This document shows, one piece after another, positions 9,918-41,713 of a DNA stretch of 64,000 bases. The notes beneath the pieces were generated by a model that worked only from the letters and a program-made list of their open reading frames with translations, ran no database searches and was not told the DNA's origin. This DNA is from Escherichia coli. Lineage in GTDB: Bacteria > Pseudomonadota > Gammaproteobacteria > Enterobacterales > Enterobacteriaceae. The stretch's first letter is position 1. Each line of letters begins with the position of its first letter. Location of the stretch: the NCBI RefSeq assembly GCF_050920415.1, contig NZ_CP169309.1; one strand, given 5' to 3'. Position numbers and translations under genes: made by a program.

Positions 9918-10210
9918 ATGCCCGCGATAAATAAACTGTCTATTCCCCTATCATTATTCTCAGCGCTTGCAAGGCTTGAACGGTAAGAACAAGCAAACAC
10001 GACCACCATTTTGCTGTTCATAGCCGCTTGCTGGAAATTAGCCGACCTCACTCATTCTCACCGTTCAAAGCATGCCCCCGTTTTACCCCTACGTAATTGT
10101 GAACGCCAGCAGAGTTTTTTATGCGTTTACGGATATGGAAAGCGGCTCGGAGAGAAAAGCTAAAGATAGGGAAGTTACAAAAAAAATCGCGAGATACATC
10201 GCATAAAACA

Positions 10211-10238
10211 ACGCCACCCGAAGGTGGCGTGCTTTTAT
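10211..10238. terminator. Rho-independent terminator hairpin (ytfP side; symmetric flanks)
   Basis: ACGCCACC-CGAA-GGTGGCGT stem-loop with a T-rich tract on the minus strand just past the ytfP stop and CTTTTATT on the plus strand. Confidence 0.75.
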
Positions 10239-10240
10239 TA

Positions 10241-10582
10241 TTACTTATCCCTGTCTAACCAGTCGCCGCTTTCAATTAGCTTTAATCCATCGACGGGTCG
10301 TTGATAAACGTACATCCATGCACTCCCGTACGGCGTCTGAATCAACTGGCGCGCGTATTCACCGCCCCTGGTGCGCAAGGCATCAAGTTCGGCCAGCGTG
10401 GCGTTGTCAATACGATAAACTTCACCGTGTACTGTTCCGTTCCCCGGAACTGCGCCTGGATAGTGGCCCAGGCTATACAACTGGTAGTTATCGATACTGA
10501 AATCGCCCAGTAACTGGGCATTGGTCATCCAGTGACTGTTGCCTTGTTTGTGGCGTAAACTGCCGTAGACAAATATTCGCAT
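10241..10582 (-). CDS. ytfP: Gamma-glutamylcyclotransferase-family protein YtfP
   Basis: 113 aa ORF MRIFVYGSLRHKQGNSHWM... (YGSL motif of the GGCT fold); adjacent to tamB. Confidence 0.93.
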   Translation of the reverse strand: MRIFVYGSLRHKQGNSHWMTNAQLLGDFSIDNYQLYSLGHYPGAVPGNGTVHGEVYRIDNATLAELDALRTRGGEYARQLIQTPYGSAWMYVYQRPVDGLKLIESGDWLDRDK

Positions 10583-10584
10583 TG

Positions 10585-16133
<5,549 letters not shown>

Positions 16134-28921: not shown

Positions 28922-29542
28922 TTAGAGGATTTCCAGCAGTTCGACTTCAAACACCAGGGTGCTGAACGGAGGGATGGACGCGCCTGCGCCACGCTCGCCA
29001 TAGGCCAGTTCCTGCGGGATAGTCAGTTCCCATTTAGAACCTACCGGCATCAGAGTCAGTGCTTCAATCCAGCCAGGGATCACGCCGTTAACCGGGAATT
29101 CAGCTGGCTCGCCACGGGCAACAGAGCTGTCAAACACAGTGCCGTCGATCAGTTTACCGGTGTAATGAACACGAACGCGGTCAGTGCGTGCCGGAATTGC
29201 GCCTTCCCCCTGATTGATCACGCGGAATTGCAGGCCAGATTCGGTGCTATTCACACCTTCTTTTTTGGCGTTTTCTTCCAGGTATTTCACACCTTCAGCA
29301 GCCATCGCCTGGAAACGCTGACGACGAACGGCATCGGCGCGTTCGTGGATTTCACGCAGCGCGCGGTGCACCACATCAACCGGAACAGCCGGATGTTTGC
29401 CTTCCAGCGCATCGGCAATGCCTGCAACCAGGGCTTCTGGCAGCAGCCCTTCCAGGCCTGATTCACTCAGTTGTTGCCCTACCTGCAAACCAATGCCGTA
29501 GCTTGCTTGCGCTTCGATGGTGTCAAAAGTTGGGGTGGTCAT
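28922..29542 (-). CDS. fklB: FKBP-type peptidyl-prolyl cis-trans isomerase
   Basis: ORF track begins at 29701; ATG 29540-29542 gives [18 protein letters not shown]... (206 aa) with a C-terminal FKBP domain. Confidence 0.93.
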
Positions 29543-29759
29543 CGTATTTCCTTTCTTAGGGTATAAAGTAGCGGGCAGCATATCAGCCACACTTCTTTGG
29601 GTAAAACTTTGTCGCGGGAATGATGACAAATCCCGGGGAAAAAGAAACAATAGCAATATCCCGTATGAATATAATAAAGGCGGGTTTACCACGGACATCA
29701 TAGCGTTAGCTTATTCATAGGCTATGATTGAGGAACAAGACGCGGAGCAGGAGGAAACC

Positions 29760-30398
29760 ATGCCCGGGCGCTTTGAACTAAAACCAACCCTGGAGAAAGT
29801 CTGGCACGCGCCGGACAATTTTCGCTTCATGGACCCGCTACCGCCGATGCATCGTCGGGGGATCATTATTGCCGCTATTGTATTGGTGGTCGGATTTCTA
29901 CTCCCGTCGGATGATACGCCAAACGCGCCGGTGGTGACGCGTGAAGCACAGTTAGATATTCAGTCGCAATCACAACCGCCGACAGAAGAACAGCTGCGGG
30001 CGCAATTAGTCACACCACAAAATGATCCTGATCAGGTGGCTCCGGTCGCTCCAGAACCGATACAGGAAGGCCAACCGGAAGAGCAGCCGCAAACCTCGCA
30101 AGTGCAACCTTTCCAGCCAGATAGCGGAATTGACAATCAATGGCGCTCTTATCGTGTCGAACCCGGTAAAACAATGGCGCAGCTGTTCCGCGACCACGGA
30201 CTGCCCGCTACCGATGTCTATGCAATGGCGCAGGTAGAAGGCGCGGATAAGCCACTGAGTAATTTGCAAAATGGGCAGATGGTGAAAATCCGCCAGAACG
30301 CCAGCGGCGTGGTGACGGGCTTAACCATTGATACGGGAAATAATCAACAGGTTCTGTTTACCCGCCAGCCGGATGGCAGTTTTATTCGCGCGCGGTAG
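29760..30398 (+). CDS. ytfB: OapA-domain cell-division/envelope protein YtfB
   Basis: GAGGAA Shine-Dalgarno then ATG 29760 ([19 protein letters not shown]..., 212 aa); TM anchor and Pro/Gln-rich linker. Confidence 0.9.
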
Positions 30399-31029
30399 AT
30401 GAAGGGTCAACCAGAAGCCAGCTAAGGATCGTCTCTTTGATGACCTTACGCCTGGCTTCCAGTGCCTGCGGTGAAACCATACTGATGTGATAAACCAGGC
30501 CAAGCGTATGTTGGTTGATCAAATAATATCCTCCAAGAGCAGCAATATTAATATTCACCTGCAACGGGTCGATATCTGGCTTAAAAATATTGCGCCGTTT
30601 GCCTTCAGCTAATAATGACTCCATTAACTGTAAGTGTGCGTGGTTAATTTCTAAAAGGCGCTGTGATTTTGCATAATGCACCCCTTTACTCTGGTTTTCA
30701 CTATGCACAATTTTTAAAAACCAGGGGTTAGCAATGTAATAATCCCAGGTGAAATCGATAATTTTCTCAATGGCTTTTTGTGGCGGAAGACCTGAGAAAT
30801 CAAGGGATTTTTCTTTTTGCCGAATATCATTCCAGGTATATTCCAGCACTTCGATAAATAAATTTTCTTTATTACCAAAGTGATGATAAACCGTCTGTTT
30901 ACTGCACTCCGCGGCCTTGACGATATTATCGACTCTGGCCCCTTCGTAACCATATTCGGCAAATTCATTAACCGCACATAACAACAGCTTTTCCTTCAGG
31001 CTTTGTACGTTGCTGGTATCAAGATACAT
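30382..31029 (-). CDS. TetR/AcrR-family transcriptional regulator (islet regulator)
   Basis: ORF track start 31089 is GTG; ATG 31027-31029 gives [58 protein letters not shown] (TetR N-terminal HTH), 215 aa. Divergent from the downstream operon; 3' end overlaps the ytfB 3' end by 17 bp. Confidence 0.85.
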
Positions 31030-31151
31030 TCCGCTTCCCCACGTCTTCTTCGTGATGACTATCTTAACCCGATTTGTTAGAAGCTCCACTAAAATGGCTA
31101 AAAACTCGCAATTTCATCGGGTTATCAAATGCTCTGTGATCATTATCGCAT

Positions 31152-31173
31152 ATCAACCAACTAGATGGTTGAT
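31152..31173. promoter_or_regulatory. Candidate TetR operator (22 bp palindrome) in the islet divergent promoter
   Basis: ATCAACCA-ACTAGA-TGGTTGAT: perfect 8 bp inverted arms with a 6 bp spacer, between the regulator start (31029) and the operon start (31241). Confidence 0.4.
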
Positions 31174-31240
31174 CTTTCTTGCCACACATTGCAAGCTAAT
31201 CGTCACTTAAGGAAATAATATTCAAAAAGAGGGTTATTGT

Positions 31241-32032
31241 ATGAAGTCAACACGTCCTGTTGCTGTCATCACTGGAGCCGCACGTGGTATTGGAAAGGGC
31301 TGTGCACTGGAACTTGCGCGTGGCGGATTTAATCTGCTGATTAATGATCGTCCGGATGCCGACAGCGTAGAAAAATTACATGCCACACAACAAGAATGTC
31401 TGGCGGAAGGCGTGGAAGTGATTTGCTTCCCTGCTGATGTTGGCGATCTCTCCCTTCATGAAGAGATGCTCGACGCGGCGCAAAACCAGTGGGGACGTCT
31501 GGACTGTCTACTCAACAACGCAGGCATTTCAGTGAAAAAACGCGGTGACCTCCTCGACCTCGAACCAGACAGCTTCGACCAAAACATTGCCATTAACACC
31601 CGTGCGCCGTTCTTCCTTGCTCAGGCATTCAGTAAGCGATTACTGGCACAGCCGAAACCGGAAGCAGAACTGCCGCACCGCTCGATTATTTTTGTCAGTT
31701 CCATAAACGCCATCATGCTGGCGATGAATCGCGGCGAATATACCATTGCAAAAACTGCCGTCTCCGCCGCAGCTCGTCTGTTTGCCGCTCGCCTTTGCAA
31801 TGAACAAATTGGCGTTTATGAAGTGCGCCCTGGCCTAATCAAAACCGATATGACCATTCCGGCAACGGCTTATTACGACGAACTGATTGCTAAGGGGTTA
31901 GTGCCGTGGGGACGTTGGGGTTATCCGGCTGATATTGCCTCAACGGTCCGCGCGATGGCGGAAGGCAAACTGATTTACACCTGTGGTCAGGCGGTCGCCA
32001 TCGACGGCGGCTTAAGTATGCCGCGCTTCTGA
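31241..32032 (+). CDS. Short-chain dehydrogenase/reductase (SDR) family oxidoreductase
   Basis: 263 aa ORF; TGAARGIG cofactor-binding motif, NNAG, and catalytic Y-x3-K (EYTIAK); AGAGGG Shine-Dalgarno. Confidence 0.85.
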   Translation: MKSTRPVAVITGAARGIGKGCALELARGGFNLLINDRPDADSVEKLHATQQECLAEGVEVICFPADVGDLSLHEEMLDAAQNQWGRLDCLLNNAGISVKKRGDLLDLEPDSFDQNIAINTRAPFFLAQAFSKRLLAQPKPEAELPHRSIIFVSSINAIMLAMNRGEYTIAKTAVSAAARLFAARLCNEQIGVYEVRPGLIKTDMTIPATAYYDELIAKGLVPWGRWGYPADIASTVRAMAEGKLIYTCGQAVAIDGGLSMPRF

Positions 32033-32041
32033 GGCTGAATC

Positions 32042-32884
32042 ATGAGAGATCTGTTACAACGCCCGGATTTATTCAGTATCAATACTGCGACACTGGGCTA
32101 TAAAACGCCGCTACCTGCCATTATTGATGCCTGCGCCGCACGCGGTATTGGCGCGATTGCCCCCTGGCGCAGGGAGTTGCAGGGTGAAGATCTCCAGCAA
32201 ATCGCCCGCCAGCTTGCTGCCAGTAACATGAGCGTTTCCGGTTTGTGTCGTAGCACCTATTACACCGCGCCGACGCTGACGGAACGCAAACTGGCGATTG
32301 ATGATAACCGCCGGGCGCTGGACGACGCCGCTGTACTGAACGCCGCCTGTTATATGCAGGTGGTTGGCGGTCTGCCAATGGGAACAAAAGATCTGTACGA
32401 AGCACGGGAACAGGTGAAACAAGGGATTCGCCAGTTGCTGCCACATTCGAAAGAGGTCGGCGTGCCAATTGCACTGGAGCCACTGCACCCGATGACTGCT
32501 GCCGATCGTTCTTGTCTGTGCACATTACGTCAGGCGCTGGACTGGTGTGATGAACTCGATCCCGATGGCGAATTTGGCCTCGGCGTGGCGGTAGATGTCT
32601 ACCATGTCTGGTGGGACCCGGATCTCGCCAGTCAGATCCTGCGTGCCGGAAAACGCATCCTCGCGTTTCATGTTTCCGACTGGCTGGTGCCAACCACCGA
32701 TTTAGTCAATGATCGGGGAATGCCGGGAGATGGCGTCATTAATATTCCCTCTATTCGTCGGCTGGTTGAAAACGCCGGATTTAATGGCGCTATTGAACTG
32801 GAAATATTCTCGCCGTACTGGTGGCAGAAAGATATTAACAGCACGCTGGATATTAGCGTCGATCGCATCGCGCATTATTGCTAA
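32042..32884 (+). CDS. Sugar-phosphate isomerase/epimerase-like TIM-barrel enzyme (xylose-isomerase-like fold)
   Basis: 280 aa ORF with the LEP / FHVSD signature pattern typical of this fold; 9 nt downstream of the SDR stop. Confidence 0.7.
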   Translation: MRDLLQRPDLFSINTATLGYKTPLPAIIDACAARGIGAIAPWRRELQGEDLQQIARQLAASNMSVSGLCRSTYYTAPTLTERKLAIDDNRRALDDAAVLNAACYMQVVGGLPMGTKDLYEAREQVKQGIRQLLPHSKEVGVPIALEPLHPMTAADRSCLCTLRQALDWCDELDPDGEFGLGVAVDVYHVWWDPDLASQILRAGKRILAFHVSDWLVPTTDLVNDRGMPGDGVINIPSIRRLVENAGFNGAIELEIFSPYWWQKDINSTLDISVDRIAHYC

Positions 32885-32893
32885 GGAATGATC

Positions 32894-33670
32894 ATGAGTG
32901 ACCAACCCGTTCTGTTCAGCAGAGCGGCGGCTTCCTGCCGCCTGACATTGAACCGTGAAGATAAATGTCATGCTATTAATGAAGAAATGATCGAATCTCT
33001 CGACCATTATTTAAATGAAATTGAAAACGACACCACATTACGATTAGTCGAATTAACGGCAACCGGCGATAAATTCTTTTGTGCGGGCGGCGATATTAAA
33101 TCGTGGTCAGCCTATTCGCCATTAGATATGGGCAGAAAATGGATTAAACGCGGCAATGACGTTTTTAATCGCCTGCGCAATTTACCTCAATTAACGGTTG
33201 CGAATCTCAACGGTCATACTATCGGCGGTGGTATTGAACTTGCCTTGTGCTGCGATATTCGTATTGCCCGCCCCAGTGCGAAATTCTCTAATCCGGAAGT
33301 AATGCTCGGCATGGTGCCTGGCTGGATGGGCATTGAACGCGTGCTTAATCAGGTCGGTCCGGTGGTCGGTCGCCAGATGCTGATGCTGGGTAAACGCCTG
33401 ACGGCGCAGGAAGCTCAGGCGGCGAATTTAATTGATGAAGTGGTAGAAAAAGAACAGGTGGAAAGCTGGATGGCGAATCAGTTAGCGCAGCTGGAAAAAT
33501 GCGGTCCGGTGGCGCTCGCACATATCAAGCAACTGATTCTGGCTCTAGAAAATAAACATGCTGATTACCCGCACCAGTTACTGGCTGGATTAATGTCCGC
33601 CACTCAGGATTGCCAGCAGGCGACGCGCGCATTTGCCGAAAAAAGTAGCGTGAGCTTCCAAAATCAATAA
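32894..33670 (+). CDS. Enoyl-CoA hydratase/isomerase (crotonase) family protein
   Basis: Crotonase hallmarks FFCAGGDIKSW and GHTIGGGIELALCCDIRIA; ATG 32894 is preferred over 32888 on Shine-Dalgarno spacing. Confidence 0.85.
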   Translation: MSDQPVLFSRAAASCRLTLNREDKCHAINEEMIESLDHYLNEIENDTTLRLVELTATGDKFFCAGGDIKSWSAYSPLDMGRKWIKRGNDVFNRLRNLPQLTVANLNGHTIGGGIELALCCDIRIARPSAKFSNPEVMLGMVPGWMGIERVLNQVGPVVGRQMLMLGKRLTAQEAQAANLIDEVVEKEQVESWMANQLAQLEKCGPVALAHIKQLILALENKHADYPHQLLAGLMSATQDCQQATRAFAEKSSVSFQNQ

Positions 33671-33679
33671 GGAAATTGT

Positions 33680-35221
33680 ATGCGTAAGATAACAACCGCC
33701 GAGACACTGGCGGCGCAAATTCAGGACGGCGCAACCATTGCCATTAGCGGTAATGGCGGCGGCATGGTGGAAGCGGACCATATTCTGGCTGCTATTGAAG
33801 CGCGTTTCCTGCAAACCGGACACCCGCGCGATCTGACATTAATCCACTCGCTGGGCATTGGCGATCGCGACTGCAAAGGCACTAACCGCTTCGCTCATGC
33901 AGATATGCTCAAACGCATCATTGCCGGACATTTTACCTGGTCGCCCAAGATGCAGGATCTGGTGAAAAACAATGCTATTGAAGCCTACTGCTTCCCTGGT
34001 GGCGTAATTCAGGCACTGCTGCGGGAGATCGGTGCCGGACGTCCAGGGCTTTTTACCCACGTTGGACTGGGATCGTTTGTTGATCCGCGCAACGGCGGCG
34101 GTAAGTCGAACGCCAGCACCACTGAGGATCTGGTAGAACTGATTGAAATCGACGGTGAAACCAAACTTCGTTATCGCCCTTTCAAAGTGGATTACGCGAT
34201 TTTGCGTGGCACTTATGCTGATCCGCGTGGCAACGTCAGCCTCGAAGAAGAGGCGATTGATATGGATAGCTATTCCATGGCGCTGGCAGCACACAACAGC
34301 GGCGGCAAAGTGTTCGTACAGGTGCGCGATGTGCTGGAAGCTGGTGCCATTGAACCACGCCGGGTCAAATTACCGGGCATTCTGGTTGATGGCATCGTTG
34401 AACACCGCGAACAACCACAAACCTATCTTGGCGGTTACGATCTGACCATTAGCGGTCAGCATCGCCGTCTAAGTTCTAACGACGCAATTGAACTGGTTAG
34501 TCATCCGGTGCGCCGCCTGATTGCCCGTCGGGCAGCACGCGAACTGGTAGCTGGCGCTTCAACCAACTTTGGCTTTGGCATTCCCGGCGGCATTCCTGGG
34601 GTTGCACTGCGCGAAGGCGTGCCTTATCAAAGTTTATGGCTGAGCGTCGAGCAAGGCGTGCATAACGGTATGATGCTGGATGATGCTCTGTTCGGCTGCG
34701 CCCGTAACGCCGATGCCATTATTCCATCACTCGATCAATTCGAATTCTACAGTGGCGGAGGGATCGATATCACCTTCCTCGGCATGGGAGAGATGGATCA
34801 GCATGGTAACGTCAACGTCTCCCATCTCAATGGCAATCTCATTGGCCCCGGCGGATTTCTCGAAATTGCGCAAAACGCCCGTAAAGTGGTGTTCTGTGGC
34901 ACGTTCGACGCCAAAGGTAGCAAGATTGATGTAACACCAGATGGCTTGCATATCGCCCAGTCAGGTCAAATCCCTAAACTGGTTACCCAGGTGGAAAAAA
35001 TCACTTTTAGCGCCGCCTACGCACAGCAAAGCGGTCAGGAAGTGTTGTATATCACTGAACGTGCAGTATTCCAGTTAACGGCAGAAGGCGTTGAATTAAT
35101 TGAAATCGCGCCGGGTGTGGAGATTGAACGCGACATTCTGCCGCATATGGCTTTCCGTCCAATTATCAATCAGCCACGCCTGATGGAAAGTAGCCTGTTT
35201 ACGCCGATGGAGGATGCATGA
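33680..35221 (+). CDS. Fused family-I CoA-transferase (acyl-CoA:acetate/3-ketoacid CoA-transferase-like)
   Basis: 513 aa ORF about the size of fused alpha/beta family-I CoA-transferases, with glycine-rich loops (ISGNGGG, SGGGIDITFLGMGE); AAGGA Shine-Dalgarno. Confidence 0.7.
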   Translation: MRKITTAETLAAQIQDGATIAISGNGGGMVEADHILAAIEARFLQTGHPRDLTLIHSLGIGDRDCKGTNRFAHADMLKRIIAGHFTWSPKMQDLVKNNAIEAYCFPGGVIQALLREIGAGRPGLFTHVGLGSFVDPRNGGGKSNASTTEDLVELIEIDGETKLRYRPFKVDYAILRGTYADPRGNVSLEEEAIDMDSYSMALAAHNSGGKVFVQVRDVLEAGAIEPRRVKLPGILVDGIVEHREQPQTYLGGYDLTISGQHRRLSSNDAIELVSHPVRRLIARRAARELVAGASTNFGFGIPGGIPGVALREGVPYQSLWLSVEQGVHNGMMLDDALFGCARNADAIIPSLDQFEFYSGGGIDITFLGMGEMDQHGNVNVSHLNGNLIGPGGFLEIAQNARKVVFCGTFDAKGSKIDVTPDGLHIAQSGQIPKLVTQVEKITFSAAYAQQSGQEVLYITERAVFQLTAEGVELIEIAPGVEIERDILPHMAFRPIINQPRLMESSLFTPMEDA

Positions 35222-37299
35222 GTCAGCTTGATGACACCCTCCTTGATGCGCTGACGCACGTCACTTTCCCGAAGGGTTTTGTGTCAGCAGAGCCAGCGTC
35301 AATTGTCACGGTTGAAGATGTCGATTACCCGATCTGGCAAGTTGATGCGCTAGTCGTTGGTAGCGGCGCGGCAGGGCTGCGCGCAGCGGTTGAACTTAAG
35401 CGCCGCCAGCAAAATGTGCTGATCGCCACCGCCGGGTTATATATGGGGACATCGGCATGTTCTGGTTCCGATAAACAGACGCTGTTTACCGCCGCTACCG
35501 CGGGCAACGGCGATAACTTCGCTAAACTGGCGGAAGCACTGGCGAGCGGTGGGGCGATGGATCACGACACCGCTTATGTCGAAGCGGTAGGTTCTCTGCA
35601 CACTCTTGGCGGGTTGCAATATCTTGGTCTGGAATTACCGGAAGATCGCTATGGCGCAATTCTTCGTTATCAAACCGACCATGACGAAGCCGGGCGAGCA
35701 ACCTCGTGTGGGCCGCGTACTTCTCGCCTAATGGTGAAAGTATTGCTGGAGGAAGTGCAGCGTCTTGCCATACCACTACTGACCAGTGCAACGGTGATTA
35801 AGCTCCTGCATCAGCACGGAGAGAATGGCGAAGATCGCGTTGCGGGGGCTATTCTCGCAACCGGTTCCCGCGCCTATAACCCTTGGGGGCTGGCTATTGT
35901 GACGGCGCCCAATGTGGTACTGGCAACGGGCGGACCGGGCGAGCTTTATCGCGACAGTGTTTATCCACATAAATGCTTCGGCTCGCTGGGGCTGGCGCTG
36001 GAAGAAGGTCTGACGCTAACCAATCTGACCGAAAGCCAGTTTGGTATAGGCACGCCGCGCAGCACGTTTCCGTGGAATTTGTCCGGCACCTATGTACAGG
36101 TGATCCCATATATCTATTCCGTGGATGCCGGGGGCAACGAGTATAACTTCCTCGCAGATTACTATCGCACCACCCAGGAGCTGGCTTCAAACATCTTCCG
36201 TAAAGGCTATCAGTGGCCGTTTCACGCCACACGAGTGATGGATTTTGGCTCCAGCTTGTTAGATATGGCAGTAGCGCAAGAGCAGCAATCAGGGCGTCAG
36301 GTATTTATGGATTTCAATCGCAATCCTGAACCTGTGCCGGGTGACCTGCCGTTCTCATTAGATCGACTGGACGACGACGTTCGCGCGTATCTGGAAAATA
36401 ACGACGCTCTGGCACCATCGCCCATCGAACGACTGCAACGAATGAATCCGCTGTCTATCTCGCTGTATAAGATGCACGGTTACGATCTCACCACGCAGCC
36501 ATTGCAGTTTGCCATGAATAATCAGCATATGAATGGCGGCATTGAAGTGGATATCTGGGGGCAAACCTCCCTGTCCGGCTGTTTCGCCGTGGGGGAAGTT
36601 GCTGGCACACACGGCGTCACTCGCCCTGGTGGTGCGGCATTGAATGCCGGGCAGGTTTTTGCTGTTCGTCTGGCACGTTTTATTGGTTGCACGCAAAAGC
36701 GGTCCGTTGAGGATGATGTCGCGCAGCTAGTAGCCTCACCTCTGCATACAATCAGAGAAGTTATCGCTCAGGCACTGGCAAACGAGAACGGAATGACGCT
36801 GGCAACGGTAAAAGAAAAAATCCAGGCGCGAATGTCTGATTACGCGGGATTTATTTGCCATGCTGATAAAGTTCGTCACGCCGCCCGTGACGCCATGCTG
36901 TTAAATGAATTTGCGCAGCAACATGGTCTAACTATCAACCACGCCGGTGAAATTGCCGAGCTATTTATGTGGCGGCATATGGCATTAACATCCGCTGCGG
37001 TGTTAAGCCAGCTATCACATTATATTGATGCTGGCGGTGGTAGTCGTGGAGCGCGGATGATTATTGATCCACAAGGAGAATATCTTCCACAAACTCGTCG
37101 CGGCGCAATCGAAGATTGGCGTTTTCGCTCTGAACAAGCTGAAGATAAAAATCACAGACTAACTCTCTCCTTTTCACAAGGTTTATTTATTAATGAAATT
37201 AAGTTCTTGAGAAACTTACCGCATATTAAAGGTATTTACTTTGAGAAGAATTGGCCTGATTTTCTTAACGGAACAATTTATCAGACACGGCATGAATAA
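35218..37299 (+). CDS. FAD-binding flavoprotein of the fumarate reductase / succinate dehydrogenase / L-aspartate oxidase superfamily
   Basis: 693 aa ORF; N-terminal dinucleotide-binding motif DALVVGSGAAGLRAAVEL; ATG overlaps the CoA-transferase stop (ATGA); the last ~300 nt are AT-rich. Confidence 0.75.
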   Translation: MSQLDDTLLDALTHVTFPKGFVSAEPASIVTVEDVDYPIWQVDALVVGSGAAGLRAAVELKRRQQNVLIATAGLYMGTSACSGSDKQTLFTAATAGNGDNFAKLAEALASGGAMDHDTAYVEAVGSLHTLGGLQYLGLELPEDRYGAILRYQTDHDEAGRATSCGPRTSRLMVKVLLEEVQRLAIPLLTSATVIKLLHQHGENGEDRVAGAILATGSRAYNPWGLAIVTAPNVVLATGGPGELYRDSVYPHKCFGSLGLALEEGLTLTNLTESQFGIGTPRSTFPWNLSGTYVQVIPYIYSVDAGGNEYNFLADYYRTTQELASNIFRKGYQWPFHATRVMDFGSSLLDMAVAQEQQSGRQVFMDFNRNPEPVPGDLPFSLDRLDDDVRAYLENNDALAPSPIERLQRMNPLSISLYKMHGYDLTTQPLQFAMNNQHMNGGIEVDIWGQTSLSGCFAVGEVAGTHGVTRPGGAALNAGQVFAVRLARFIGCTQKRSVEDDVAQLVASPLHTIREVIAQALANENGMTLATVKEKIQARMSDYAGFICHADKVRHAARDAMLLNEFAQQHGLTINHAGEIAELFMWRHMALTSAAVLSQLSHYIDAGGGSRGARMIIDPQGEYLPQTRRGAIEDWRFRSEQAEDKNHRLTLSFSQGLFINEIKFLRNLPHIKGIYFEKNWPDFLNGTIYQTRHE

Positions 37300-37319
37300 T
37301 ATTGCAAAGGTTAATCACT

Positions 37320-37796
37320 ATGCGAAATATAATCAGATCTATTAATTCATTGCTTTCCACATTGAACATTACCATTTTGGCAATTATTGTGATGTGCGTT
37401 ACATGGCAAGTAGTAGCACGATTTATCTTTAAAAGCCCCAGCATTTTTACAGATGAACTTAGTCGTTTACTATTTATTTGTCTTGGACTTTTTGGTGGTG
37501 CTTATACTGCCGGACAAAACCGACATCTGGCCATTGATCTTCTGCCAATGATGCTAAAAGGAAAATCCCGACGTTATTTATTCTTATGTATTCAGGCCAT
37601 TGTTATTCTTTTTGCCTCTATCATTATGGTTTATGGTGGCGGGTTATTAACACTGGACACATTTGATTCAGGGCAAACTTCTCCGGCTTTAGGCTGGCAG
37701 ATGGGATATATTTACATGAGCATTCCAATAAGTGGCATCCTTATTATTATATACACCATAGATACAGTTTTAACCGAACTTAAACAACCACTCTAA
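37320..37796 (+). CDS. TRAP transporter small permease (DctQ-like)
   Basis: ORF track start 37302 is TTG; ATG 37320 with AAGG Shine-Dalgarno gives a ~158 aa four-TM protein; strongly AT-rich. Confidence 0.8.
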   Translation: MRNIIRSINSLLSTLNITILAIIVMCVTWQVVARFIFKSPSIFTDELSRLLFICLGLFGGAYTAGQNRHLAIDLLPMMLKGKSRRYLFLCIQAIVILFASIIMVYGGGLLTLDTFDSGQTSPALGWQMGYIYMSIPISGILIIIYTIDTVLTELKQPL

Positions 37797-37818
37797 AATA
37801 AGTAGGGATGGAGAAAAC

Positions 37819-39120
37819 ATGGATTACTGGTTACCGATCATTGTGTTATTTGGTGCTTTCTTTTTTATGTTGGCATTAGGTGTTCCTATTGTCTATGCTA
37901 TTGGTTTATCAACACTGGCATCAATTACTACACAACTCGATTTCAACTCAGCGTTAAGTGTGGTTTCCCAAAAGTTAGCCTCCGGGTTAGATAGTTTTAC
38001 GTTGTTGGCAATCCCATTTTTTATTTTGTCTGGCAACATTATGAATCACGGAGGAATAGCGCGACGATTAATCAACTTTGCCCGAATTCTCGGCGGTCGT
38101 CTGCCAGGCTCACTTGCCCACTGTAATATTCTTGCCAATATGCTGTTCGGGGCAATTTCTGGTTCAGCCGTGGCTTCGGCGGCTGCGATGGGCGGCGTCA
38201 TGCATCCGCAACAGGTTAAAGAGGGCTACGACCCGGCATTCAGTACTGCAGTTAACGTTGCCTCTGCCCCGACGGGTTTGCTTATTCCACCCAGTAATAC
38301 GTTAATCGTCTATTCACTGGTCAGTGGTGGTACTTCTATTGCCGCACTGTTCCTGGCAGGATATGTCCCGGGAATTTTATTGGGCCTGGCGCTGATGACT
38401 GTGGCTGGTATTATCGCGGTACGCCGGGGTTATCCAAAACCAGAACGTCCGACTTTGCGCCAGGCTGGAGTGGCAATATGGATGGCGATCCCCAGTATTT
38501 TCCTGATTGTATTAATTATGGGTGGTGTACTAAGCGGTATTTTTACCCCGACAGAAGCATCTGCAATTGCGGTAATTTATACCCTTTTCCTTGCACTGGT
38601 TCTTTATCGTGAAATATCAGTTAAAGATTTACCTAAGATATTTCTGGAGTCCGTCATTACCACTGCAATTGTCTTGTTGTTAATTGGTTCTTCAATGGGA
38701 ATGTCATGGGCAATGTCAAACGCTGACGTTCCCTTCCTGATTCTCGATTTGCTTAACACTATTTCTGACAATCCAATAATCATCCTGCTTATTATCAATA
38801 TTATCCTGTTGATTATCGGCACATTTATGGATATGACACCGGCAGTACTGATTTTTACGCCGATATTTTTACCCGTTGTCACCGAACTGGGTATGGACCC
38901 GATTCACTTTGGTATTGTCATGGTACTGAACATGTGTATCGGTATTTGTACTCCGCCTGTAGGCAGTGTGTTATTTGTCGGTTGTAGTGTATCTAAATTA
39001 CCGATTAATAAAATTATCAAACCTATGCTGCCATTCTATGCCGTGATGGTATTGGTGCTGGCAATGGTTACCTATATTCCGCAAATCAGTATGGCATTGC
39101 CAAGAGCACTGGGCTACTGA
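37819..39120 (+). CDS. TRAP transporter large permease (DctM-like)
   Basis: 433 aa polytopic membrane ORF MDYWLPIIVLFGAFFFMLALGVPIVYAIGL...; AT-rich. Confidence 0.88.
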   Translation: MDYWLPIIVLFGAFFFMLALGVPIVYAIGLSTLASITTQLDFNSALSVVSQKLASGLDSFTLLAIPFFILSGNIMNHGGIARRLINFARILGGRLPGSLAHCNILANMLFGAISGSAVASAAAMGGVMHPQQVKEGYDPAFSTAVNVASAPTGLLIPPSNTLIVYSLVSGGTSIAALFLAGYVPGILLGLALMTVAGIIAVRRGYPKPERPTLRQAGVAIWMAIPSIFLIVLIMGGVLSGIFTPTEASAIAVIYTLFLALVLYREISVKDLPKIFLESVITTAIVLLLIGSSMGMSWAMSNADVPFLILDLLNTISDNPIIILLIINIILLIIGTFMDMTPAVLIFTPIFLPVVTELGMDPIHFGIVMVLNMCIGICTPPVGSVLFVGCSVSKLPINKIIKPMLPFYAVMVLVLAMVTYIPQISMALPRALGY

Positions 39121-39172
39121 TATGCATTAACTGGCGGCACCTGCCGCCATATTTATTAGAAAAGGAACATCT

Positions 39173-40144
39173 ATGAAAATAAAAGTATCCGCTGGCATTA
39201 TCGGTGCTGTTCTTATGCTATCCGCAAGCCAGTCCTGGGCAGTAACATTAAAACTTAGCCATAATCAGGATAAATCTCATCCTGTTCATAAAGCGATGGA
39301 GTTCTTTGCGAAAAAGAGCAAAGAGTACTCTAACGGTGATATTACTATTCGTATTTATCCAAATGGAACATTGGGTACTCAACGAGAAACAATGGAGCTG
39401 ATTCGTTCTGGTGCTATTCCGCTGGTAAAAACCAATGCGGCGGAGATGGAAGCCTTCGAGAGTTCGTATAAAATATTTAGCCTGCCTTATTTGTTCCGCG
39501 ATCGTGATCATTATTATCAGGTCATGCAAGGCGATATCGGAAGGAAAATCCTCGACTCAACGAAAAGCAAAGGTTATTTCGGGCTGACTTTCTATGATGG
39601 AGGCGCCCGCAGTTTCTACGGTAATAAACCGGTACTGAAACCAGACGATCTGAAAGGCATGAAAGTCCGTGTCCAGCCAAGTCCTGGCGCAGTTGAAATG
39701 ATCAAAGTCATGGGCGGTAACCCGACGCCACTGGATTACGGCGAGCTGTATACGGCCTTACAGCAGGGCGTGGTCGATATGGCAGAAAACAGCGTGATGG
39801 CACTGACCACTATGCGTCACGGTGAAGTGGCAAAATCCTTTAGCCTTGATGAGCACACCATGGTGCCCGATGTGGTTCTGATGAGTAATGCTGCATTTGA
39901 TAAACTCAGCCCTGAAAATCAGGCAGTTATATTAAAAGCAGCGAAAGAATCGATGAGTTACATGAAGGAGTTATGGAGCGAGCAAGAGAAACAAGAATTT
40001 GCAAAACTGGATAAAATGGGCGTAAAAGTCTACCCGGTTGATAAAGCACCGTTTATCGAGAAAGTACAACCGATGTACGCAAACTTCGCTAAAGATAACC
40101 CTGCCCTTGCCCCAATGCTGGCTGATATTCAGGCGGCTAAGTAA
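39173..40144 (+). CDS. TRAP transporter periplasmic solute-binding protein (DctP-like)
   Basis: 323 aa ORF with signal peptide MKIKVSAGIIGAVLMLSASQSWA; last gene of the operon. Confidence 0.88.
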   Translation: MKIKVSAGIIGAVLMLSASQSWAVTLKLSHNQDKSHPVHKAMEFFAKKSKEYSNGDITIRIYPNGTLGTQRETMELIRSGAIPLVKTNAAEMEAFESSYKIFSLPYLFRDRDHYYQVMQGDIGRKILDSTKSKGYFGLTFYDGGARSFYGNKPVLKPDDLKGMKVRVQPSPGAVEMIKVMGGNPTPLDYGELYTALQQGVVDMAENSVMALTTMRHGEVAKSFSLDEHTMVPDVVLMSNAAFDKLSPENQAVILKAAKESMSYMKELWSEQEKQEFAKLDKMGVKVYPVDKAPFIEKVQPMYANFAKDNPALAPMLADIQAAK

Positions 40145-40201
40145 TTACCTTCATGGGGCTGCTTATTGTGGCCCTTATCGATATCAGCAAGTGCTCGCTA
40201 T

Positions 40202-40236
40202 AAAAGCAAAACGCCGACCAATGGTCGGCGTTTTTA
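40202..40236. terminator. Bidirectional rho-independent terminator (islet operon / rplI)
   Basis: ACGCCGACCA-A-TGGTCGGCGT perfect hairpin flanked by AAAAGCAAA upstream and TTTTT downstream; sits between the convergent TRAP binding-protein gene and rplI. Confidence 0.85.
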
Positions 40237-40255
40237 CGTCTCGTTGAATAACGAA

Positions 40256-40717
<462 letters not shown>

Positions 40718-40746
40718 TCAAAGTCGTATTAATGGACCGTGACCGA

Positions 40747-41293
<547 letters not shown>

Positions 41294-41299
41294 CAGAAA

Positions 41300-41713
<414 letters not shown>

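Follow-up and report, generated by a model that had tools for sequence, protein, structure and literature searches.

A TetR-controlled operon between ytfB and rplI of Escherichia coli with a putative role in the catabolism of a hexuronate-like acid

Introduction

What is the function of the nine-gene unit that is located between ytfB and rplI in part of the Escherichia coli strains, and that is missing from the laboratory strain K-12? The question was raised by a 64-kb stretch of E. coli DNA (contig NZ_CP169309.1; "the window" denotes this whole stretch throughout), in which an initial annotation had recognized an accessory islet of unknown substrate. It was described as a TetR-family regulator gene that is divergent from a packed series of genes for five enzymes and a tripartite ATP-independent periplasmic (TRAP) transporter. 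We analyzed the gene content, the transporters, the enzymes, the distribution, and the control elements of this unit. The results are best explained by a catabolic operon that is repressed by its TetR protein and serves a sugar acid of the hexuronate type, D-glucuronate or a close ring-shaped polyhydroxy-carboxylate, and we regard the chances that this assignment is correct as about even. It is based mainly on the transporters, which occupy one variable slot in the operon and which are all related to hexuronate transport systems.

Gene content and organization

According to the open reading frame (ORF) list of the window, the unit is located between ytfB (29760-30398, plus strand) and rplI (40256-40705, minus strand), and it consists of nine genes with intact reading frames. 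A divergent tetR-type gene is followed by eight co-directional genes on the plus strand, which encode a short-chain dehydrogenase/reductase (SDR), a TIM-barrel protein, a crotonase, a CoA-transferase, a flavoprotein, and the TRAP subunits DctQ, DctM, and DctP. The same nine genes, with identical sequence, are annotated by RefSeq between ytfB and rplI in E. coli MFDS1022581. The features of the unit are listed below, with the respective evidence in brackets.

30382-31029, minus strand: gene of a TetR-family repressor, 215 aa with the RefSeq start; the longest ORF extends to 31089 (Pfam, RefSeq)
31154-31171, unstranded: candidate TetR operator, inverted repeat CAACCA-N6-TGGTTG (conservation)
31241-32032, plus strand: SDR, 263 aa (NCBIfam, PDB search, motifs)
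32042-32884, plus strand: xylose-isomerase-like metal TIM-barrel protein, 280 aa (Pfam, PDB search)
32894-33670, plus strand, alternative start at 32888: crotonase-fold enoyl-CoA hydratase, 258 aa (NCBIfam, motifs)
33680-35221, plus strand: fused alpha-beta family-I CoA-transferase of the YdiF/Pct type, 513 aa (NCBIfam, PDB search)
35218-37299, plus strand: soluble flavoprotein with SdhA/FrdA/NadB fold, 693 aa (Pfam, AlphaFold2, Foldseek)
37320-37796, plus strand, alternative start at 37302: DctQ, small membrane subunit of the TRAP transporter (NCBIfam YiaM, 9e-10; RefSeq)
37819-39120, plus strand: DctM, large membrane subunit of the TRAP transporter (TIGR00786, 461 bits, above the cut-off)
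39132-39149, plus strand: GC-rich hairpin with a T-rich tail in the dctM-dctP spacer (terminator-like scan)
39173-40144, plus strand: DctP-family periplasmic solute-binding protein (SBP) of the TRAP transporter, 323 aa, predicted glucuronate-binding type (TIGR00787, 248 bits)
40208-40234, unstranded: bidirectional intrinsic terminator (12-bp stem with 7 GC pairs)

From the SDR gene through dctP, the spacers at the junctions are 9, 9, 9, -4, 20, 22, and 52 nt long. The negative value represents an ATGA overlap that couples the stop codon of the CoA-transferase gene with the start codon of the flavoprotein gene. The ORF list, the NCBIfam and Pfam assignments, and these spacers are in full agreement with the gene content and the operon-like packing that had been claimed initially, and the gene content of the unit cannot have arisen by chance. 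The bidirectional terminator that had been proposed to close the unit was also recovered. It is composed of an A-run, the 12-bp stem, and a T-run, and it is common to the operon and to the convergent rpsF-priB-rpsR-rplI operon.

The transporter slot

The position after the flavoprotein gene is occupied by one of three alternatives, namely, the TRAP system, a transporter of the major facilitator superfamily (MFS) in E. coli, or another MFS transporter in Klebsiella and Salmonella. The TRAP trio of the window is complete (TIGR00787 with 248 bits, TIGR00786 with 461 bits, and a YiaM-type small subunit with 9e-10), and the SBP has a Sec signal peptide that ends with SWA. The best matches of the SBP in the PDB were 4ovr, 4x8r, 4n8y, 4n15, and 4n91, and 4MHF was also among the top relatives. 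The first three of these are presumably structures with uronate ligands. 4N91 and 4MHF are binders of D-glucuronate/D-galacturonate, and 4N15 has been described as a glucuronate(/galacturonate) binder or template (PMC7660916).

Outside of the islet, the closest relatives of the SBP (55-61% identity) were found in Vibrio, Photobacterium, Aeromonas, Plesiomonas, Morganella, and others. The SBP genes of V. cholerae and A. veronii, the products of which are 56-58% identical to the islet SBP, are part of clusters that also encode UxaC, a UxuB-type dehydrogenase, UxuA, KdgK, Eda, a GH2 glycosidase, and a GntR regulator. The glucuronate SBP of Salmonella, STM3169, contacts its ligand with the residues N35, Q36, E74, R150, R170, N210, and D237 (PMC7660916). 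If a constant offset of four residues is applied, the corresponding residues of the islet SBP are N31, Q32, Q70 (with E72 two residues further on), R146, R166, N206, and D233. The Arg that binds the ligand carboxylate in TRAP SBPs is present as R166, and, together with R146 and N206, it aligns with R170, R150, and N210 of STM3169. At every contact position of the STM3169/Apre_1383 type, the islet SBPs are identical to the Vibrio/Aeromonas SBPs; the islet SBP itself is not encoded beside uxa or uxu genes.

The MFS transporter of BL21-type E. coli strains is 47.6% identical to ExuT of K-12 (425 bits) and 27% identical to DgoT, GarP, and LgoT, and its name in the JGI database is "hexuronate transporter-like". 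The MFS transporter of Klebsiella and Salmonella is a separate protein. Its identity to the E. coli MFS transporter is only 51%, compared to 77-90% for the flanking enzymes, and its identity to ExuT is about 48%. In addition, two further loci that encode members of the flavoprotein family contain TRAP SBPs with the same set of uronate binders as their top PDB matches. One of them has the gene order SDR-flavoprotein-TIM-TRAP (L009), and the other belongs to a metagenome-assembled genome (MAG) of the Bacillota (L065).

Because three non-identical relatives of hexuronate transporters share one slot in three genera, a hexuronate-like acid is the most probable substrate. The description "unknown substrate" therefore had to be modified. 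It is still true that the pathway has no name, but the substrate is no longer wholly unknown and has been narrowed to a hexuronate-like acid by the three transporter types.

The comparison of common E. coli alleles with TRAP or MFS genes revealed that the flavoprotein genes are 99% identical up to about nucleotide 1800 and only 59-65% identical thereafter, and that the last 280 nt or so are mosaic (window 36800-37320). Because the TRAP/MFS breakpoint of these common alleles is situated inside the flavoprotein gene, the transporter seems to be inherited as part of the unit. The flavoprotein of the window has an MFS-like tail (amino acid identities of 77% with BL21 and of 57% with the common TRAP allele) despite the presence of TRAP genes, and a second junction that differs from the first is therefore indicated for the window allele.

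The SDR, TIM-barrel protein, crotonase, and CoA-transferase

The SDR matched the NCBIfam model PRK12745, an uninformative equivalog, with 420 bits, the KduD models with about 117 bits, and the PDB entries 4da9/4one with an E value of 1e-56. The TGxxxGIG and YxxxK motifs are present in its translation. The TIM-barrel protein matched the Pfam family AP_endonuc_2 (3e-37), and weak matches to IolO, Hyi, and IolI were also obtained. Over residues 11-280, it matched SMc04130 of S. meliloti (PDB 3ju2/3qc0; E value 2e-85, 290 bits), a protein with no assigned function. The islet protein is predicted to be a keto-sugar isomerase, epimerase, or dehydratase. The SMc04130 cluster contains genes for a TetR_C_29 regulator, three or four Gfo/Idh/MocA dehydrogenases, a DUF993 protein, an enolase-like protein, and a CUT1 sugar ABC transporter, while a flavoprotein gene is absent. 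It is a related orphan pathway, and a literature search with the S. meliloti locus tags yielded nothing useful.

The crotonase matched 72 NCBIfam models of enoyl-CoA hydratases, many of them with E values between 1e-30 and 1e-44, the latter being that of the best model. Its translation contains both catalytic Glu motifs, GGGIELAL and NPEVMLG, which we take to correspond to those of rat enoyl-CoA hydratase. The CoA-transferase is a fused protein, in which both the PcaI- and the PcaJ-type halves were matched, and it is of the FadX/PcaIJ type according to NCBIfam. It is 40% identical to YdiF of E. coli (PDB 2ahu, 4.5e-116), and the catalytic Glu333 is kept as E324. In K-12, ydiF (1772.5-1778.3 kb) directly follows ydiN (MFS), ydiB (quinate/shikimate dehydrogenase), and aroD, and it precedes ydiO; at this locus, too, a YdiF-type transferase is combined with enzymes for ring acids in an unexplained manner.

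The names of the islet proteins in NCBIfam, UniProt, NCBI, and JGI, including look-ups of exact-sequence clusters, were all generic, and no pathway was assigned by any of them. The PDB relatives are unannotated structural-genomics entries. A full-text literature search for the cluster, with yjfZ/ytfA, the enzyme combinations, PDB codes, and glucuronate together with CoA enzymes as topics, retrieved no paper on it. The initial statement that the enzymes match no nameable pathway was thus confirmed, and the lack of a thiolase or lyase, which had been noted as well, is evident from the ORF list and the NCBIfam results.

The flavoprotein and its family

In Pfam, the flavoprotein matched solely FAD_binding_2 (1e-25). 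Its AlphaFold2 model had a mean confidence (pLDDT) of 88.5, and the best Foldseek matches in the PDB were SdhA/FrdA proteins with 15-18% identity and TM scores of 0.6-0.67. The Foldseek search of the PDB yielded only SdhA, FrdA, NadB, and AprA, and no closer enzyme of known function. An alignment with FrdA and NadB of E. coli revealed that H437 and R469 correspond to H355 and R390 of FrdA, the His/Arg pair that binds the substrate carboxylate, and both residues are invariant. However, the flavoprotein is devoid of the His for covalent FAD attachment (G77), of the hinge His232 (G276), and of the catalytic Arg287 (S345; FrdA numbering). The G276 and S345 columns are invariant in an alignment of 24 members of the family. 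An additional region is present at the C-terminus of the protein, and the operon does not encode an Fe-S or membrane partner. A function as fumarate reductase, succinate dehydrogenase, or aspartate oxidase was rejected because the catalytic Arg and the hinge His are missing.

With a threshold of E<=1e-30, 417 representative clusters (50% identity) were retrieved. The flavoprotein is thus a member of a large uncharacterised family that is widespread in Proteobacteria, bacteria of the Planctomycetes-Verrucomicrobia-Chlamydiae (PVC) group, and Firmicutes. The genomic context of family members was inspected at 80 genome loci. The closest relative outside of Escherichia was found in Brenneria, in a cluster with the order TetR-SDR-TIM-flavoprotein-MFS and without CoA genes. 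The three genes for the SDR, the TIM-barrel protein, and the flavoprotein were accompanied by a gene for a 383-aa Gfo/Idh/MocA dehydrogenase in Phytobacter, Pseudescherichia, Mangrovibacter, a betaproteobacterium, and one MAG each of the Lentisphaeria and Opitutia. In Rhizobium and Rhodobacteraceae, the flavoprotein loci encode two GMC oxidoreductases, a levoglucosan-dehydrogenase-like enzyme, a Dabb protein, a sugar ABC transporter, and a LacI regulator, and a KdgK-like kinase is added at 10 loci. Genes for an Eda-like aldolase likewise adjoin family members at 10 loci. The combination of the flavoprotein with a YdiF-type transferase and a crotonase recurs in a betaproteobacterium (together with an acyl-CoA dehydrogenase, EtfAB, and a TRAP transporter), in a Desulfobacterales MAG, and in a gut MAG of the Clostridia. 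The picture that emerges from these gene neighborhoods is that of a portable SDR/TIM/flavoprotein module for keto-sugars or keto-sugar acids, into which the CoA-transferase and crotonase genes have been inserted, between the TIM and flavoprotein genes, in Escherichia, Klebsiella, and Salmonella.

A distant subfamily, with 37-41% identity to the flavoprotein, was found in Phycisphaerae MAGs (loci L064, L071, L077, L083, and L087), together with an SDR, an Eda-like 261-aa protein, a 504-aa protein without family assignment, and an oxidoreductase that represents a fusion of old yellow enzyme and GltD domains. Some of these loci are neighbored by uvrA and mtnA. This subfamily probably has a different function, and it was left out of the evidence.

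A possible reaction scheme

If the operon is indeed devoted to a hexuronate-type acid, the sugar acid would be imported and would relieve the repression by the TetR protein. The SDR, the TIM-barrel protein, and the flavoprotein could oxidize a hydroxyl or reduce a keto group, perform a keto-enol isomerisation or dehydration, and catalyze a flavin-dependent redox step next to the carboxylate. The YdiF-type transferase might convert the acid or an intermediate into a CoA thioester, which would acidify the alpha-proton, and the hydratase-type crotonase might then eliminate or add a beta-hydroxyl. By chemical reasoning, such an elimination is possible because a uronyl- or aldonyl-CoA is formally a 3-hydroxyacyl-CoA. 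Together, the transferase and the crotonase would constitute a CoA-dependent surrogate for a metal-dependent sugar-acid dehydratase. The transferase would subsequently hand the CoA to the next substrate molecule, and, because CoA would be recycled in this way, neither a ligase nor a thiolase or lyase would be needed. The product would probably join a lower pathway of the 2-keto-3-deoxygluconate (KDG)/Entner-Doudoroff type that is encoded elsewhere in the genome. Several partial schemes fit, but none of them closes stoichiometrically with all five enzymes, and no unique step resulted for the flavoprotein. The more specific proposal of a second hexuronate route in enterobacteria, which would proceed via a CoA thioester and a beta-elimination by the crotonase and would include a novel redox step on a keto-sugar acid by a new class of FrdA/NadB-fold flavoenzymes, is doubtful.

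Several observations weigh against a hexuronate operon. No curated model ties any of the five enzymes to a uronate. Sugar-acid CoA thioesters are not established in uronate catabolism, and we infer the CoA step. If the ligand is plain D-glucuronate, as suggested by the residues of the SBP, the operon looks redundant, because E. coli has the ExuT-UxaC-UxuAB/UxaAB system. The regulator is of the TetR type, whereas GntR-type regulators, ExuR and UxuR, are usual for hexuronate genes. Many close homologues of the flavoprotein in Rhizobium and Rhodobacteraceae (52-57% identity) are encoded beside neutral-sugar ABC transporters, LacI regulators, and GMC oxidoreductases; because of the proximity to neutral-sugar transporters, the flavoprotein family is not restricted to imported uronates. 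The three-enzyme module of Brenneria is coupled with a PcaK-like aromatic-acid transporter. Finally, the flavoprotein does not have the catalytic Arg of FrdA, an electron-transfer partner is not encoded in the operon, and no step could be assigned to this enzyme.

Alternative explanations

It is unlikely that the transporter is functionally separate from the enzymes. In this case, it would add high-affinity uptake of glucuronate to feed UxaC and UxuAB, and the five enzymes would act on another substrate that is made internally or imported otherwise. A separation would be in line with the contact residues of the SBP, which are indistinguishable from those of SBPs of ordinary glucuronate clusters, with the free swapping of the slot while the enzymes remain constant, with the lower G+C content of the TRAP genes compared to the enzyme genes, and with the glucuronate TRAP transporter of S. 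Typhimurium, which stands alone without enzymes (PMC7660916). However, the gap between the flavoprotein gene and dctQ comprises just 20 nt and contains neither a terminator nor a promoter-like site. Moreover, three non-identical transporters of the hexuronate type are found behind the same enzymes in three genera, the TRAP/MFS breakpoint of the common E. coli alleles inside the flavoprotein gene implies that the transporter is inherited with the unit, and other loci of the flavoprotein family independently hold TRAP SBPs of the uronate type. It is somewhat less likely still that the substrate is a plant hydroaromatic compound of the quinate/shikimate type or a cyclitol carboxylate, the shape of which would resemble that of a pyranuronate. 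The SDR would then generate a ring ketone, the TIM-barrel protein would be a dehydratase similar to dehydroshikimate dehydratase or IolE, the flavoprotein would introduce or remove a double bond in the manner of KstD, and the products of the CoA genes would act at the carboxyl group. Dehydroshikimate dehydratase and inosose-type enzymes belong to the family of the TIM-barrel protein, and the automatic name "3-dehydroshikimate dehydratase" has been given to some Sinorhizobium orthologues of its closest homologue, but such names are unreviewed. The module of Brenneria is paired with a PcaK-like aromatic-acid/H+ symporter, ydiF as the closest characterised paralogue of the CoA-transferase is located near ydiB and aroD in K-12, and related clusters contain inositol-dehydrogenase-like Gfo/Idh/MocA genes. 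In Sinomonas, an SDR and FAD_binding_2 desaturases reportedly aromatise hydroxy-cyclohexanecarboxylate. Yet the transporters of Escherichia, Klebsiella, and Salmonella are, in all three types, hexuronate-type and not shikimate- or aromatic-acid-type proteins, quinate and its saturated derivatives offer no beta-hydroxyl to the crotonase, and nothing was found in a literature search for a link of quinate/shikimate to CoA-transferase clusters.

A low probability was also given to an anaerobic electron sink in the style of the carnitine (cai) or caffeate systems, i.e., a reductive dehydroxylation in which the transferase activates a beta-hydroxy acid, the crotonase dehydrates it, the flavoprotein reduces the enoyl group, CoA is passed on, and the product is excreted. 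The presence of a transferase in place of a ligase, the absence of a thiolase or lyase, the translational coupling of the transferase and flavoprotein genes, and the fumarate-reductase fold of the flavoprotein with its retained carboxylate-binding His and Arg would all suit this function, and a uronyl-CoA would, chemically, be an appropriate 3-hydroxyacyl-CoA. But the proton-donating Arg of fumarate reductases is missing from the flavoprotein, no electron-donor partner is encoded, the SDR and the TIM-barrel protein would have no role, and the kinase and aldolase genes of related loci point to assimilation. The electron sink overlaps with the hexuronate operon proposed above and differs from it only in the fate of the product. 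It is very improbable that the unit is a beta-oxidation-like module for short-chain fatty acids or ketone bodies, despite the names given by NCBIfam and RefSeq (3-ketoacyl-ACP reductase, enoyl-CoA hydratase, and acetate/3-ketoacid CoA-transferase) and the relationship of the CoA-transferase to FadX of Staphylococcus and YdiF of E. coli. A TIM-barrel protein of the sugar type and transporters of the hexuronate type would be out of place in such a module, and many bacteria combine the SDR, TIM-barrel protein, and flavoprotein in the absence of any CoA genes, next to genes for sugar kinases, aldolases, and LacI regulators. Ordinary beta-oxidation was rejected, because the unit contains neither a thiolase gene nor a gene for an acyl-CoA dehydrogenase (ACAD-fold). 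The separate transporter, the hydroaromatic substrate, and the beta-oxidation-like module are all disfavoured because of the transporter evidence and the tight packing of the genes.

Comparison with known systems

The classical Ashwell system of hexuronate degradation (ExuT, UxaC, UxuB/UxuA, UxaB/UxaA, and KdgK/Eda, with the regulators ExuR/UxuR) resembles the unit in its transporters, because the MFS transporter is 48% identical to ExuT and the TRAP SBP is of the type found with the uxa/uxu genes of Vibrio and Aeromonas. The end point, likely a 2-keto-3-deoxy acid as judged from the KdgK- and Eda-like neighbors of the flavoprotein homologues, would also be shared. In contrast, none of the islet proteins matches the NCBIfam models for UxaC, UxuA/B, or UxaA/B, and uxaC, uxaA, and exuT of K-12 are located elsewhere. 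In addition, the islet regulator is of the TetR type, and the CoA-transferase, the crotonase, and the flavoprotein are without counterpart in any described uronate route. The KduI/KduD (DhuI/DhuD) pair, which converts 5-keto-4-deoxyuronate to KDG, is similar in combining an isomerase for a keto-sugar acid with an SDR reductase, and the islet SDR reached about 117 bits with the KduD models. However, the islet isomerase would be a TIM-barrel protein and not a cupin or RpiB-like protein, and the SDR belongs to another equivalog (PRK12745, 420 bits).

The carnitine system, caiTABCDE, also makes use of a CoA-transferase instead of a ligase, of a crotonase dehydratase, and of a flavoenzyme, does not involve a thiolase, and passes CoA from the product to the substrate. 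But CaiB is a family-III transferase and CaiA has an acyl-CoA dehydrogenase fold, whereas the islet encodes a family-I transferase of the YdiF type and a flavoprotein with an SdhA/FrdA fold, plus an SDR and a TIM-barrel protein. As in the pathways for keto-glycosides and levoglucosan, relatives of the islet TIM-barrel protein and flavoprotein cluster with Gfo/Idh/MocA genes that are levoglucosan- or inositol-dehydrogenase-like, and with TetR_C_29 regulators. This clustering suggests a chemistry in which a substrate is oxidized to a ketone and then isomerised or subjected to elimination. The E. coli unit differs in having an SDR in place of the Gfo/Idh/MocA enzyme, the import of an acid, and CoA enzymes, and no member of the flavoprotein family has been described in these pathways. 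Compared to the SdhA/FrdA/NadB class, the flavoprotein shares the fold, the FAD_binding_2 domain, and the carboxylate His/Arg pair, while the identity amounts to only 15-18% and the covalent-FAD His, the hinge His, the catalytic Arg, and an Fe-S or membrane partner are missing.

None of the five enzymes has been given a function, because the unit is invisible in knowledge that is based on K-12. If the hexuronate assignment is true, the operon would represent a second route for glucuronate-type acids, which are a major carbon source in the gut and from the host (glucuronides, glycosaminoglycans, pectin, and xylan), and it would be relevant for colonisation. It would also offer a first handle on a flavoprotein family, members of which are repeatedly encoded in loci for carbohydrate acids in bacteria from the sea, the soil, and the gut. 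With BL21 and K-12, a natural plus/minus pair for the operon is available. As a whole, the unit is a variant of a familiar type of catabolic operon, and its interest lies mainly in the flavoprotein family and in a possible CoA-dependent chemistry of sugar acids.

Distribution, age, and selection

The segment of the CoA-transferase and flavoprotein genes was present in 3126 of the 5426 complete E. coli genomes (58%). The TRAP genes were found in 1445-1480 genomes of this set, and the alternative single MFS gene in 1686-1693. BL21 and the enteropathogenic E. coli (EPEC) strain E2348/69 carry the MFS form, and the operon is also present in the lineage ST131. Outside of E. coli, the TetR gene and the five-enzyme unit occupy the same ytfB-rplI site in Klebsiella grimontii/oxytoca (MFS form), Klebsiella huaxiensis (TRAP form), and Salmonella enterica (MFS form).

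Hallmarks of mobility were not detected at the locus: there is no integrase ORF and no tRNA gene, and the flanking repeats are short and at chance level only. The G+C contents of the enzyme genes are host-like (49-55%), and only the TRAP genes have lower values of 37-45% (36.7% for dctQ). When the window allele was compared with the common allele of E. coli, the ratios of non-synonymous to synonymous substitution rates (dN/dS) were 0.02-0.06 for eight of the genes, including 0.034 for the TetR gene, and 0.165 for the flavoprotein gene. Because of the synteny in sister genera, the host-like G+C contents of the enzyme genes, the low dN/dS values, and the lack of mobility hallmarks, the sequences indicate an old and selectively maintained operon that is ancestral at ytfB-rplI in Escherichia, Klebsiella, and Salmonella and that was lost in part of E. 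coli.

A recently acquired genomic island was rejected on account of the identical site in Klebsiella and Salmonella and the absence of mobility genes, tRNA genes, and meaningful repeats. The term "accessory islet" therefore puts too much weight on a horizontal acquisition. A decaying or non-functional locus was also rejected, in view of dN/dS values of 0.02-0.17 and of reading frames that have remained intact in thousands of genomes.

The core genes that flank the unit (window 24300-46300) are only about 93-97% identical to those of a typical E. coli chromosome, MS10495, with a dS of 0.196 for ytfB, and the unit itself was matched with at least 99% identity by only 2-14 of the 5426 complete genomes. 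Because of this low identity and the few close matches, the window is ascribed to a deeply divergent Escherichia lineage that is labelled E. coli.

The remnant in K-12 and other states of the locus

The gene order in MG1655 is rplI-yjfZ-ytfA(pseudogene)-ytfB. A comparison of the K-12 region with the window using blastn revealed that ytfA corresponds to the 3'-terminal 403 bp of the TetR gene (window 30382-30784), which encode the C-terminal ligand domain. A relic of the SDR gene, 102 bp long and 81% identical to window 31330-31431, is present between ytfA and yjfZ and is unannotated in the record (MG1655 4427.4-4427.7 kb). The homology between K-12 and the window restarts at window position 40203, just ahead of the terminator, and yjfZ has no counterpart in the window. 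An intermediate form exists in strain WGI31CT, in which the full operon (MFS form) is followed by yjfZ. The state of K-12 is best read as the result of a deletion from the N-terminus of the TetR protein through the transporter, in an ancestor that carried yjfZ.

The statement of the initial annotation that K-12 has yjfZ and ytfA at this site was correct, and MG1655 does not contain the nine genes there. The 403-bp match of ytfA, the SDR relic, and WGI31CT also verify the suggestion that ytfA is a truncated TetR fragment and that the K-12 locus is a decayed form of the operon.

In O157:H7-type genomes, the TetR remnant is split by an insertion of IS609 (tnpA and insQ/tnpB). In B2-type strains, a pair of genes for a frameshifted HipA-family toxin and a helix-turn-helix antitoxin is located between the MFS gene and rplI (EPEC E2348/69, locus positions 10006-11766). 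The Klebsiella and Salmonella loci contain an extra EamA-family gene ahead of rplI. The side of the locus next to rplI is a hotspot for insertions.

The regulator and control elements

The regulator matched the Pfam families TetR_N (3.2e-13, residues 19-61) and TetR_C_29 (4e-30, residues 83-201). The intergenic region between the TetR and SDR genes contains the palindrome CAACCAACTAGATGGTTG (31154-31171), about 70 nt upstream of the SDR start codon. This inverted repeat, of the form CAACCA-N6-TGGTTG, is invariant in Escherichia and Klebsiella, while the surrounding intergenic sequence is 78% identical on average. It was found in a single copy at each of nine islet loci, and it is the sole match in the 64-kb window even if one mismatch is allowed. 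The palindrome is the obvious candidate for the operator of the TetR repressor.

An Rfam scan of window 29500-41500 detected no RNA element, and neither a terminator nor a promoter-like site was present in the 20-nt gap between the flavoprotein gene and dctQ. The 52-nt spacer between dctM and dctP contains the hairpin at 39132-39149, with a stem of 7 bp including 6 GC pairs. This hairpin could be a partial terminator or an mRNA stabiliser that sets the ratio of the SBP to the membrane subunits. At the other end of the unit, ytfB and the TetR gene are convergent and share the last 17 nt of their 3' ends (30382-30398), and this overlap is kept in K-12 (ytfA/ytfB), Klebsiella, and Salmonella.

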